Part shown: piece by piece, positions 9,377-14,570 of the stretch
Layout of the letters: every line of letters starts with the position of its first letter
Position numbering within the stretch: position 1 is the first letter of the stretch
Origin: Escherichia coli O127:H6 str. E2348/69
Lineage (GTDB): Bacteria; Pseudomonadota; Gammaproteobacteria; Enterobacterales; Enterobacteriaceae
DNA: 64,000 nucleotides
Direction: 5' to 3' (one strand)
NCBI RefSeq assembly: GCF_000026545.1
Contig: NC_011601.1
Notes under the pieces: generated by a model
The model's input: the letters and a program-made list of their open reading frames with translations, nothing else
What the model was told of the DNA's origin: nothing
The model's database searches: none
Position numbers and translations under genes: made by a program

Positions 9377-9742
9377 ACTGCAGAAGGTGGACGACTGGCT
9401 GAGTGCCTTGCTGGCGAATCTGGAGCCAGCCGCAAGAAGCCGCATGATGCGCCAGCTGGCGCAGGAACTGCGCCGGACACAGCAGCAGAACATCAGGATG
9501 CAACGCAATCCTGATGGCAGCAGCTATGAACCGAGGCGAGTAACAGCACGCAGTAAAAAAGGCCGTATCAAACGGCAGATGTTTACAAAACTTCGCACCA
9601 CAAAATACCTGAAAACTGCCGCCAGCGCCGACTCTGCCAGCGTGCAGTTTGAAGGTAAGGTACAGCGCATTGCCCGTGTTCACCATTACGGCTTGCGTGA
9701 TCGCGTCAGCCGTAAGGGGCCACAGATACGTTATGCTAAACG
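9369..9742 (+). pseudogene. S: tail completion protein S (P2 gpS-like), 3' end disrupted at the inversion junction
   Basis: GTG start at 9369; S-like sequence runs for ~122 codons, then the open frame continues to 10157 as antisense of the tail-fibre gene. Confidence 0.6.
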
Positions 9743-10792
9743 TAGGTATGTGAGAAGACCAGTTACATCCTTTCCACTCAAATTAGTCAGCGTATTGTCC
9801 AGCGGTTGTTTACCTGCCAGTGCATTAAGCATTGTCGTGGCAAAGTTCGGGTCATTCCCCAGCGCCGCCGCCAGTTCGTTCAGTGTATCCAGTGCCGCAG
9901 GTGCAGAACCCACCATTGCCGCAATCGCCGATTTCACAAATGCCGTGGTGGCAATTTGTGTATTGTTGACCGACTGTGCCGCAGTAGGTGCGGTTGGCGT
10001 TCCGGTGAGTGCCGGACTCGACAGCGGCGCTTTCAGTGCCAGCGCATTGTTAATGGTGGTACTGAATTTCGGATCATTGTTAATGGCTGCGGCTATTTCT
10101 TTCAGCGTGTCCAGCGTGGCTGGCGCACCATTAATAAGAGCCGTCAGAGCCGCCTGAACAAACTCGGTGGTCGCAATCTGCGTGGTGTTATTCCCTGCTG
10201 CTGGCGTTGGCGCTTTGGGTGTCCCGGTAAACGTCGGACTTTCTTTGGGTACATACTGTGAATGCGGGTCCGGTGCGGCAAGATGTTTTGCCATCTGATC
10301 ATCCGCGTACACCTTCAGCTCCAGTGCCTTGTCATCCACATACTTGCGGGTTGCTAGCACTACAGCAGGGTCGATTTTCAGGGTGATATTGTCCGTGCTG
10401 CTGGTAATCAGCACCATGCGCACGGTCTGAGTGCGCCCGCTACCTTCAGCCAGTTGCGGCTTATAGCTTTCCGGGCAGTTGCCCACGGCAATCAATGCCC
10501 CGGACTCATCAAACAAGCCCACTTCACGTATCCACCAACCGCCCTCGTTTTCAGGAATCACCTGTTCGGCAATAATCTGACTGCTGTTCTGCGGGTCGAT
10601 ATAGAGCATATTCAGCGCAGCCCGGCGTTTCTCATTTACCAGTGCAGTCTGCTTTGAGTCTGGCGTTGGCAATACTCCGCCGCCATCGCCGACCGCCATA
10701 TGGGTAATTTTTAGCGGCACACCGAGCGCGGCGGCGCTGGCAAGTTTCGCCGCGCCAATATCCGTCAGCAGGGTATAAAATTTTGTGCTCAT
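9731..10792 (-). CDS. H: tail fibre protein H, N-terminal (proximal) part only, ends at the inverted repeat
   Basis: 353 aa, N-terminus MSTKFYTLLTDIGAAKLA...MAVGDGGG like P2 gpH, contains NNTQIATTAFV fibre repeats; no distal receptor-binding region. Confidence 0.8.
   Translation of the reverse strand: MSTKFYTLLTDIGAAKLASAAALGVPLKITHMAVGDGGGVLPTPDSKQTALVNEKRRAALNMLYIDPQNSSQIIAEQVIPENEGGWWIREVGLFDESGALIAVGNCPESYKPQLAEGSGRTQTVRMVLITSSTDNITLKIDPAVVLATRKYVDDKALELKVYADDQMAKHLAAPDPHSQYVPKESPTFTGTPKAPTPAAGNNTTQIATTEFVQAALTALINGAPATLDTLKEIAAAINNDPKFSTTINNALALKAPLSSPALTGTPTAPTAAQSVNNTQIATTAFVKSAIAAMVGSAPAALDTLNELAAALGNDPNFATTMLNALAGKQPLDNTLTNLSGKDVTGLLTYLRLA
9737..9747. repeat. left inverted repeat TAAACGTAGGT, candidate invertase crossover site
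   Basis: Exact reverse complement of 14499-14509; sits at the S/H junction; central AAAC..GGT resembles hix/gix-type cores. Confidence 0.45.
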
Positions 10793-11394
10793 GGATTCAC
10801 TCTCATTGTGTCAATAACATGGACCGCCCCGCCTTCATGCGCGGTGCCGCCAGAAATAATTGTTTCGTTGATATACGGATAGATCGTGATTTCTTCGCCA
10901 AGATAGCTGGCGGCCCCCACCCAATGCGGACCGCTGGTCTGCAGATTGATGGACATGCCGATCATGTGACGGCTACATGGTTTGGCATCGCTTATCAGCC
11001 GCTCAAGTTCCAGATAGGTATCTTCAGTGATGCCCTGGTCCTGCACGCAGATATCCAGGCGAAACGTGCCCGGTGCCTCTCCGGTCTGCCACCACTCAAT
11101 AATGCGGATCAGAAAGCCGAACGGCTCCACCACCCGCCGCACGGCACTGGTGGTTCCTTTATGCTGATGAATATAAAAAGCATCCTTCACCACCTGACGT
11201 TTGACGCTTTCTGTCCAGCCCTCGTCCCAGCGATCCACAGAGAACGCCCAAGCGAGATAAGGCAGGAAACTGACCGGACAGGTTGCCGGATTCCACAAGT
11301 CACGCAGCGGCACCTGCAGATCAGAAATCCCGCTGCAGGTTTGCGCCAGTCGGCGCTCCAGTGGCGTTGAACCCGGTGGCAGCAGACTATTCAT
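10789..11394 (-). CDS. I: baseplate assembly protein I (P2 gpI-like)
   Basis: 201 aa, ATGA overlap with H; P2 order. Confidence 0.85.
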   Translation of the reverse strand: MNSLLPPGSTPLERRLAQTCSGISDLQVPLRDLWNPATCPVSFLPYLAWAFSVDRWDEGWTESVKRQVVKDAFYIHQHKGTTSAVRRVVEPFGFLIRIIEWWQTGEAPGTFRLDICVQDQGITEDTYLELERLISDAKPCSRHMIGMSINLQTSGPHWVGAASYLGEEITIYPYINETIISGGTAHEGGAVHVIDTMRVNP

Positions 11395-12295
11395 CCGTAC
11401 CCCCGTTGGTCACGCTCCACTGCGTACATGATGCCGCCTGCGTTTTGTTCAGGACCACATCTGCCAGCGGGGAAGCCAGCTCCACACGCTGAACACCCTC
11501 AACATGCAGCGCGGCAAAAATGGCGCTACGGCGAATATCCCGACCAAGCCGCGTCTGACTGGCGATGTACCTCTGCAGGCTGGCTTTTGCCGCTGCCATT
11601 ACCGGCTCTGCTTCCGGCCCCGGATAGAGAAAAATGGTGGCTTCCACGCGGTACGGGATGATTTCCGCGCTGCGAACCGTCAGACGGTCAGCCACCGGGC
11701 GGACGTTCTCACTGTTCAGGGCTTTCTCCACCACATCCAGCAGGTCTTTTTCTGCTGTTCCGTCGCCTTCACGGCTTAGGACCGTAAGCACCACCTCTGC
11801 AGGTGCCGGACTGGTTGCACTGGCATCCGCCACCCGACCGTCGGCGCTTCGTGCATGAAACTCATAAGCGGCAGTTGGCCCAGCAACAGAAAGCCCTTCA
11901 AAGGCTGCAGGCACACGCAGGCGTAACGCTTCATCACTTTCCATCACAGCCGCAACGGGCGGTACAGCGTCATCATCAGCAGGTGTCACCGTCAGGCGTT
12001 TCACGTTGTAGTTAGCAGCGAGATGGTCAAGATCGCCGCCCATCGCGTAAGCCACCATCACAGCCTGCGCGGCTTCGTTAATGCGCTGGCGCAGAAGCAA
12101 CTCACGGTAAGCGTTCTCCTGCAGCAATTTGGTGACGGGTTCAGATTCCAGTTCCAGCGTACGCATCACTGCTTCCTGCTCATCTTTCGGATGAAGCGCC
12201 ACAAATTCTGCCTTGCGTTCGGCAAGCAGCGTCTCAAAGTCCGGCACATCCACAATCTGCGGCGCAGGTAACTGCGAAAGGTCAATCACTGCCAT
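11387..12295 (-). CDS. J: baseplate assembly protein J (P2 gpJ-like)
   Basis: ~302 aa from the Met at 12295 (MAVIDLSQLP). Confidence 0.85.
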   Translation of the reverse strand: MAVIDLSQLPAPQIVDVPDFETLLAERKAEFVALHPKDEQEAVMRTLELESEPVTKLLQENAYRELLLRQRINEAAQAVMVAYAMGGDLDHLAANYNVKRLTVTPADDDAVPPVAAVMESDEALRLRVPAAFEGLSVAGPTAAYEFHARSADGRVADASATSPAPAEVVLTVLSREGDGTAEKDLLDVVEKALNSENVRPVADRLTVRSAEIIPYRVEATIFLYPGPEAEPVMAAAKASLQRYIASQTRLGRDIRRSAIFAALHVEGVQRVELASPLADVVLNKTQAASCTQWSVTNGGTDE

Positions 12296-13292: not shown

Positions 13293-14453
13293 ATGGAGAT
13301 GACTGAAATGATCTTTGCTGCACGTTACTTGGTCGAGTTGCCTTATGTCCTCAATATTCCAGATGGTGATTATGATTTTCTATATGAAAATAACCATTTA
13401 CGCTTAACAGTTCACAACGATTACTATGCACTATTTAAAGATGCAAGCTTATTCCCTCAAACCCTATTAATCGGTACCAGAGAACAACTACTACCACATC
13501 ACACAAATGAAAGAGGGATAATGAAATGCCGGACTATTATTTCTCTCGCCAACTATTGGGAATGTTTTGACCTTTTAGAAATATCACATGAAGAACTAAT
13601 CAACTCTATAAGAAACCAAATAAGGAAAGAAGATAACTTCCCATCTGTGGAAGATGCTGAGATGCTCCTATCCAAAATGAGCCAGCAAGATATAGATAAA
13701 AAAATAGAGTTAGAGAGAAAAATAAAAACTGCTAGAGAGATATTTCCACCTAAAAGATCAGAGGAATGTATCGGAATAATAAACCACTTTATAAAACAGT
13801 ATAGAGTTGCCTTTAAAGATCAATTTGCAGACGAGATATCTCTTTATCAAGTTGGCTCAGGATTTACCAACGGAGTGTTACAAGAGCATTATTGCGATGG
13901 TATTAAGATAAGTGCAATTCCTTTAGTTGGAGTAATCACCCCATTAATGAGAGAAAGCTGGTATAAACACGATGAAAGTCTCATTGATAATTTCAAAAAA
14001 CGTTTAATGTCAAATGAATTCAATGAACATCCTGAACTATTATTGATTAGAGCAGACAATCTTGTTCATAAAGGTGCATTTAGATCAGCCGTAATTGAAG
14101 CATCAGCAGGCCTTGAAAGCTATATTCTCAGAAAAATTATTAATGCCTTTCATCGCAATGGTATCAATGAATGCCAGACAAAAGAAACATTAAATAAAAA
14201 CTGGAAGTTCGATGATAGATGTAAAAAACTATTCAAACAACTCTTTAACATCTCTGTACCCGAAATTGCGCCACTTGAGTGGCAACATGCAAATAAAAAC
14301 AGGAAAGAATTACGTGACAAAATAGCTCATACATCACATGAACCAACAGAGAAAGAAACAAAAGAATTTATAAAAAGCATCAATTTATTAATTGAAAAAA
14401 TAGACTCATACTTTAAGAAAATTAATGAATCTAACGAATCAAAAAATTTATGA
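13293..14453 (+). CDS. hypothetical protein, AT-rich orphan cargo gene with C-terminal HEPN-like R-x4-H motif (ELRDKIAH)
   Basis: Long uninterrupted ORF in very AT-rich DNA between phage tail genes. Possible starts are ATG 13293, 13299 or 13308 (GGAG lies 9 nt upstream of 13308). No resemblance to P2 structural proteins. A TATGAT -10-like hexamer sits at 13264-13269. Confidence 0.7.
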   Translation: MEMTEMIFAARYLVELPYVLNIPDGDYDFLYENNHLRLTVHNDYYALFKDASLFPQTLLIGTREQLLPHHTNERGIMKCRTIISLANYWECFDLLEISHEELINSIRNQIRKEDNFPSVEDAEMLLSKMSQQDIDKKIELERKIKTAREIFPPKRSEECIGIINHFIKQYRVAFKDQFADEISLYQVGSGFTNGVLQEHYCDGIKISAIPLVGVITPLMRESWYKHDESLIDNFKKRLMSNEFNEHPELLLIRADNLVHKGAFRSAVIEASAGLESYILRKIINAFHRNGINECQTKETLNKNWKFDDRCKKLFKQLFNISVPEIAPLEWQHANKNRKELRDKIAHTSHEPTEKETKEFIKSINLLIEKIDSYFKKINESNESKNL

Positions 14454-14498
14454 TTATCTCTTCTATAATATCAAAATCAGTATCATAAATTCCAAGTA

Positions 14499-14509
14499 AC
14501 CTACGTTTA
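14499..14509. repeat. right inverted repeat ACCTACGTTTA, candidate invertase crossover site
   Basis: Exact reverse complement of 9737-9747; located ~60 bp upstream of the invertase start, as for gix/hix sites next to gin/hin. Confidence 0.45.
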
Positions 14510-14570
14510 TGAAAATGCAGAGATAATGGCTAACTGGCATCATCCACGGTTTTTATTCAGGGGATTGATC

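Follow-up and report, generated by a model that had tools for sequence, protein, structure and literature searches.

The best-described relatives of the locus examined here are the invertase switches of phage Mu (G/Gin), P1 (C/Cin), e14 (P/Pin) and Salmonella (Hin), which rely on 26-bp crossover sites built as two 12-bp half-sites around a 2-bp centre (12+2+12). In Mu, the invertible segment is a 2–3 kb cassette of alternative fibre tips, with one site, gixR, placed before the invertase gene gin. Enhancers in Gin, Hin and Cin lie within the 5′ region of the invertase gene. Cin reportedly also recombines at quasi-sites with localized conversion of the central dinucleotide, as Iida and Hiestand-Nauer (1986, 1987; cited in PMC4134206) are said to have described from events selected on laboratory plasmids. 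P2-like prophages, such as Phi2 of EC958, carry fibre switches of their own, and in culture such segments invert at high frequency (PMC4134206). Here, we analyzed a 64,000-nucleotide stretch of Escherichia coli O127:H6 str. E2348/69 (NC_011601.1; hereafter the window), which holds the late-gene half of a defective P2-like prophage whose end, at ogr, lies near window 22.4 kb. In this prophage, a block of baseplate genes lies inverted next to a gene for a Gin-family invertase. We consider this arrangement to be, with a probability of about 0.8, the fixed scar of illegitimate recombination by a serine invertase of the Gin/Cin family, either the prophage’s own enzyme or another active one in the strain. 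We found no description of this particular inversion in the accessible literature.

The canonical order of the region, as seen in the prophages of NCTC11121, NCTC9966 and ECO2947, is R-S-(cargo)-V-W-J-I-H-(fibre segment)-invertase-FI, where the cargo is an AT-rich gene found at the same spot in all three. Both profile searches and these relatives agree with the initial annotation of the window in that the block from the truncated tail-fibre gene H (H′) through I, J and W to V is inverted relative to the P2 order. The same annotation had predicted that flipping the block would restore colinearity, and this was borne out: after reversal in silico of window 9745–14501, the window aligned without gaps to the three canonical prophages (98.6–98.7% over 10.8 kb, 99.8–99.9% over 4 kb), with 3–5 mismatches in the 4,757 bp of the segment itself. 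The sole piece missing after the flip was the invertible fibre segment of the relatives, which spans 1,969 bp from centre to centre. S and H had been expected to stay non-canonical in either orientation, which holds for H but not for S. The flip restores a 148-aa S exactly identical to the native protein on 985 contigs, while H is truncated both ways, at 353 aa in the window state and 352 aa in the flipped state, compared to 500–514 aa for full-length H in relatives. No fibre tip, tfa or assembly gene is left in either state, and the inversion does not exchange alternative functional gene parts such as fibre C-termini or assembly genes.

Both ends of the segment carry the 11-bp repeat TAAACGTAGGT, from which the initial annotation had proposed an invertible segment and which is present exactly twice in the window, at 9737–9747 (+) and 14499–14509 (−). 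As that annotation had cautioned, such repeats are common by chance: the window contains 1,215 inverted 11-mer pairs, 114 of them spaced 3–6 kb. The pair alone is unremarkable, and it is the comparative evidence that makes it real. The left copy does lie where likeness to S ends (the profile phrog_26 covers residues 1–128 of the 262-aa open reading frame, ORF) and where the minus-strand H ORF terminates. The right copy had been placed ~60 bp before the invertase start; it ends 62 bp before the start at 14571, where the alignment with Mu Gin begins (MLIGYVRVS), so the distance stands but the start originally read, 14526, is an upstream in-frame ATG.

The repeat is the shared core of two 26-bp sites of the 12+2+12 layout, identical at 18 of 26 positions, and corresponds to the family core TAAACG..GGT plus a duplicated TA centre. 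We took the parental sites for half-site comparison from NCTC11121. In canonical relatives, siteL lies inside H and reads TTCTCCCAAACC AA GGTATGTGAGAA, while siteR lies beside the invertase and reads TTTTCATAAACG TT GGTTTGGGAGAA. A third, partly matching sequence, here called quasi-site X, occupies the last codons of S in NCTC11121, NCTC9966 and ECO2947 and reads TTATGCTAAACG TA GGTTACTTGGAA. Each junction in the window is a chimera of one canonical half-site and one half of X, the left junction pairing the left half of X with the outer half of siteL and the right junction pairing the outer half of siteR with the right half of X (Table 1). These two hybrid sites are exactly the homology breakpoints relative to the canonical prophages, and they bound the segment in inverted orientation with matching TA/TA centres. 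The proposal that invertase-type crossover sites flank the segment, one of them just upstream of an intact Gin-family invertase gene, is thereby upheld. The exchange falls at the 2-bp centre of both partners, with the TA of X kept at both junctions where the canonical centres are AA and TT. Informative bases bracket the crossover to positions 14–17 of the left site and 7–13 of the right site, intervals that include or abut the centre and that cannot be narrowed because the flanking bases are common to both partners; they are consistent with the staggered 2-bp cut of serine invertases. Compared to the consensus half-site, the hybrid sites match at only 8+10 and 8+7 of 12+12 positions, and the canonical sites have one perfect 12/12 half each. 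Allowing ≤1 mismatch, the consensus inner half-site GTTTGGGAGAA is absent from the entire window. Lacking any consensus half-site, the hybrid sites would leave the segment effectively locked, and it probably no longer flips.

The gene adjacent to the right hybrid site encodes a serine recombinase of the invertase subfamily, which aligns over residues 1–184 with the Mu Gin structures 3UJ3 and 4M6F (E = 1e-93), retains the catalytic serine (Ser9), and matches the profiles phrog_125 (DNA invertase) and Pfam Resolvase and HTH_7, the latter for its C-terminal helix-turn-helix. Its accession, WP_000905023.1, is common to NCTC11121 and ECO2947, and ECO2947 has identical DNA over the half-site and onward to the end of the invertase gene, so that any enhancer of the canonical relatives is retained. 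A scan of the invertase 5′ region and Mu gin with a loose G-N13-C Fis motif gave no clear paired sites, was uninformative, and was not used. The same fibre segment, with identical tfa proteins, stands in opposite orientations in NCTC11121 versus NCTC9966 and ECO2947; since it occurs both ways among relatives with an identical invertase, this enzyme-site system is active in nature. As a separate observation, the invertase gene of NCTC9966 (L006 3404–3969) carries a 1-bp frameshift in an otherwise near-identical and canonical prophage, which would freeze its fibre segment opposite to that of NCTC11121. Three further Gin-type loci invert actively in E2348/69 (PMC4272514), and the responsible enzyme could therefore have acted in trans.

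Quasi-site X is a by-product of the cargo. S alleles without the AT-rich cargo (AR_0013, EC16) have TTACGCAGAGCGTCGCCTTCTGGGTG at the place of X, which is not site-like, and X is present only in cargo-linked S alleles. These diverge from ~20 bp upstream of X onward, where GC content falls to 20–36%, which indicates that the cargo cassette altered the last codons of S and that X arose there by chance.

Taken together, these data are consistent with a scenario in which an ancestor of canonical order, with siteL inside H, siteR beside the invertase and the fibre segment in between, would have received the cargo cassette after S, and with it the look-alike X in the last S codons. An invertase would then have broken X and the two canonical sites at the 2-bp centre; on rejoining, the outer half of siteL would have acquired the left half of X, and the outer half of siteR its right half. 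In sum, the 4,757-bp stretch from S to the constant part of H would have been inverted, and the 1,969-bp fibre segment would have been lost along with both consensus inner half-sites. Two steps would be required, an inversion and a deletion, in each of which X or a hybrid derived from it took part, and either order would give the observed junctions. A single concerted three-site event was considered and set aside, given that known invertase synapses hold two sites. A joint between X and a canonical site would have one mismatched centre base, and both junctions would have been resolved to TA, as is expected for one of the two daughter duplexes when a single inversion has occurred. The V-W-J-I-H′ operon would have moved together with the dyad at its PV place, i.e., with its own putative promoter, so that the baseplate genes are probably not switched off by the inversion as such. 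For the phage, lethality is expected from the split in S, the truncation of H, the loss of the fibre genes and, according to annotation, a frameshifted tape-measure gene.

Both kinds of accident needed for this arrangement occur elsewhere in the same prophage family. In AR_0013 and OZ546943 (NZ_OZ546943.1), siteL recombined with a quasi-site inside FI, GCGACATTATCG AA GGTATCCGCGCC. The resulting inversion takes in the fibre segment, the invertase and the 5′ portion of FI, and both FI and H are split. EC16 (NZ_CP189734.1, L005 7050–7075) retains the canonical order but has lost the fibre segment in a deletion that runs exactly from one outer half-site to the other, the only such deletion in canonical order among 5,426 complete E. 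coli genomes. Its scar, TTCTCACATACC joined directly to CGTTTATGAAAA, measures 24 bp and lacks the 2-bp centre, as would be expected if ends with non-complementary TT overhangs had been trimmed and joined. AR_0013 and EC16 break at the same central position of the canonical sites. With three independent accidents counted in this prophage group, a broader reading can be formulated, in which self-inflicted off-target recombination by Gin-family enzymes is a recurrent natural route to P2-like prophages that are crippled and thereby trapped in their host, and the hybrid sites of E2348/69 still flip on rare occasions to rebuild S; we regard this extended version as rather unlikely. AT-rich cargo insertions could create such quasi-sites accidentally.

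The initial annotation had left undecided whether the window shows one state of a working switch or an aberrant inversion that became fixed; the evidence, with one orientation throughout, favours the second alternative. Both junctions are confined to three O127:H6 E2348/69 assemblies among the 5,426 genomes. All three complete assemblies show the window orientation and match window 8900–15300 at 100% identity, and the same orientation is seen in 7/7 independent Logan/ENA contigs spanning the left junction, one of which, L010, spans both junctions. Overall, contigs with window-state junctions come from five SRA runs and two ENA assemblies, and the window-state H′ protein is found on 18 contigs. 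The flipped-state H protein was not found in a collection of 15 billion proteins, and we saw no coexistence of both orientations in populations or close relatives. A paired-end, genome-wide inversion screen of four E2348/69 colonies, with a stated detection of 1:100 mixtures, reports inversions at fim and at 1.89, 2.75 and 2.98 Mb but nowhere else, and so none at the prophage locus (PMC4272514, Table S1); none of the repeats given there occurs in the window. JGI metagenome contigs and GTDB representatives contained no flipped- or deleted-state junction, but the window-state control was absent too, so that these collections are uninformative on orientation. A reversible switch flipping in E2348/69 populations, with S toggling between intact and split, has several features in its favour: the invertase is intact and its protein identical to one whose fibre segment occurs in both orientations elsewhere, the inverted hybrid sites share an identical palindromic TA centre that would give perfectly matched joints, and the invertase-proximal half-site and the 5′ region of the gene are unchanged. 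Set against the uniform orientation, the loss of both consensus inner half-sites, and the lack of alternative fibre tips, which means that neither state gives a functional phage, these features leave such a switch improbable. As a side observation, two contigs (L009 and L014, from ENA ERZ761545 / ERZ761551) connect position 11073 of the window, within gene I, to chromosomal DNA with icd, and L009 alone joins ~9225, in gene R, to a 55-mer from artM (window 35400–35454), which reflects either another rearrangement in the sample or chimeric assembly.

The junctions might alternatively have arisen independently of any invertase, through microhomology recombination such as replication template switching, and adjoin invertase sites by coincidence. 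Short sequences are indeed shared at the joints (AGGT on the left, TAAACG on the right), and X is statistically unexceptional as a site. Coincidence would however have to place all three breakpoints (X, siteL and siteR) at the central dinucleotide of 26-bp sites, make the deleted DNA exactly the invertible segment from centre to centre, and keep the same 2-bp centre at both junctions, as a staggered 2-bp cut predicts, and the shared break position in AR_0013 and EC16 would need the same explanation; we consider this origin very improbable. An assembly artefact of the reference genome is scarcely credible: invertible prophage regions are known to confuse assemblies (PMC4134206), but identical junctions recur in the three separate complete assemblies, the five SRA runs and the two ENA assemblies.

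The preferred reading, a fixed scar of off-target invertase recombination, has points against it as well. Invertases do not normally delete DNA between inverted sites, and the 5,426 E. coli genomes yielded no intermediate with one junction and a retained fibre segment. Assemblies show the majority orientation only, and rare flipping could escape them. In a scan that ranked all 26-mers with a crude weight matrix built from five canonical half-sites, X came 4th of ~64,000 window positions by site likeness, but its score of 11.6 is not above the best chance matches (maxima of 11–21 in shuffled sequence). Site likeness alone would therefore not single out X, and we dropped the ranking as proof of specificity. 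Finally, the link between invertase and junctions comes from sequence comparison, and catalysis of these events by an invertase is put forward on that basis as the probable mechanism.

The gene map of the locus is given in Table 1. Past 9744, the S ORF continues to 10157 as an out-of-frame antisense of H, and PGAP annotates S as a pseudogene without its C-terminus; H′ stops four codons past the crossover centre. Besides the dyad upstream of V, similar TGT-N12-ACA dyads occur at 3854–3871 and 3912–3929, where PP/PO is expected, and at 15186–15203, where PF is expected. We take these to be Ogr-dependent late promoters as in P2 (PP/PO, PV, PF); the motif count in the window, 11, is not above chance (mean 15). 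The cargo gene product matches PHROG 28299, which is without known function, and has a weak match to a class-I tRNA-synthetase (CysRS) catalytic domain (PF01406, E = 3e-4; TIGR00435, E = 5e-4, same stretch). PADLOC returned no match for it, and NCBIfam and Pfam nothing beyond this weak CysRS-domain match. Another cargo position of the prophage is at the left end of the late region, where a gene for a DprA-like DNA-processing protein (~75–1049) adjoins the portal gene. The tape-measure gene T (~17461–20538) is annotated as frameshifted in CP059840.2, and the ORF list of the window has an uninterrupted 1,025-aa ORF; the frameshift may be specific to that assembly.

Table 1 Features of the inverted locus. 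Positions refer to the window unless another sequence is named; gene calls come from profile searches and RefSeq annotation.
Feature	Position	Strand	Details
Gene R	8924–9376	+	Profile and RefSeq
Gene S, 5′ part (virion morphogenesis / tail completion)	9369–9744	+	Native ~125 codons
Left hybrid site	9731–9756	+	TTATGCTAAACG TA GGTATGTGAGAA; X left half 9731–9742, TA 9743–9744, outer half of siteL (in H) 9745–9756
Truncated tail-fibre gene H′	9731–10792	−	353 aa, constant N-terminal part only
Inverted segment	9745–14501		4,757 bp enclosed by the two TA centres; H′, I, J, W, V, PV promoter dyad, cargo gene, S 3′ end
Gene I (tail protein I)	10789–11394	−	Profile and RefSeq
Gene J (baseplate assembly protein)	11387–12295	−	Profile and RefSeq
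Gene W (GPW/gp25 baseplate wedge)	12282–12641	−	Profile and RefSeq
Gene V (baseplate spike / assembly protein V)	12638–13216	−	Profile and RefSeq
TGT-N12-ACA dyad upstream of V	13262–13279		Place expected for late promoter PV
AT-rich cargo gene	13308–14453	+	381 aa; between S and V
Detached S 3′ end	14431–14501	−	Last ~23 codons and stop; opposite strand, far end of segment; from flipped translation
Right hybrid site	14490–14515	−	Minus strand reads TTTTCATAAACG TA GGTTACTTGGAA; outer half of siteR 14504–14515, TA 14502–14503, X right half 14490–14501
Gin-family serine DNA invertase gene	14571–15137	+	188 aa, intact
Tail sheath gene FI	15280–16452	+	Profile and RefSeq; first gene of the undisturbed right flank
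AR_0013 off-target junctions	L004 5130–5155 and 8722–8747		

The proposed history explains two unusual entries in the annotation of a reference pathogen genome, S as a pseudogene and a 353-aa “variable tail fibre”. It would also represent a natural case, resolved to the half-site, of a tail-fibre invertase that acted on a look-alike site and inactivated its own prophage. It points to a way in which prophages may decay, with two more cases known from other strains. The insertion of a cargo gene can, in addition, create a hazardous recombinase target.

Compared to known systems, the locus shares with Mu G/Gin, and equally with P1 C/Cin, e14 P/Pin and Salmonella Hin, a Gin-like invertase over residues 1–184 and 26-bp sites of 12+2+12 layout, and one of its sites lies ~55–60 bp upstream of the invertase gene, as gixR precedes gin in Mu. 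It differs from Mu G/Gin in that the segment comprises 4.76 kb of baseplate genes instead of a 2–3 kb cassette of alternative fibre tips, in having no alternative products, in hybrid sites devoid of a consensus half, and in the single orientation observed. The P2-like fibre switches of EC958 Phi2 (PMC4134206) and of NCTC11121, NCTC9966 and ECO2947 have the same backbone, invertase and outer half-sites and represent the direct ancestor state, whereas in E2348/69 the 1,969-bp segment is gone and the outer half-sites are joined to halves of the site in S. We conclude that the locus descends from a Gin/Cin-type fibre switch but has neither the two orientations nor the alternative products by which a live switch is recognized. 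The accidents in AR_0013/OZ546943 and EC16 share its breakpoints at the same central position of the same canonical sites; in AR_0013, unlike here, the partner lies in FI and the inverted block runs from the fibre segment through the invertase into the 5′ part of FI, and EC16 shows a deletion only, with its 24-bp scar.

The quasi-site recombination reported for Cin is alike in pairing a canonical with a partly matching site, in exchanging at the 2-bp centre, and in yielding a product whose centre differs from that of the canonical partner, while the Cin events were reportedly obtained on plasmids and that of E2348/69 became fixed in a natural prophage, combined with loss of the invertible segment. 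Overall, the locus shows no sign of function and is not a new kind of switch, and it fits known invertase quasi-site recombination, of which it would be a natural instance.

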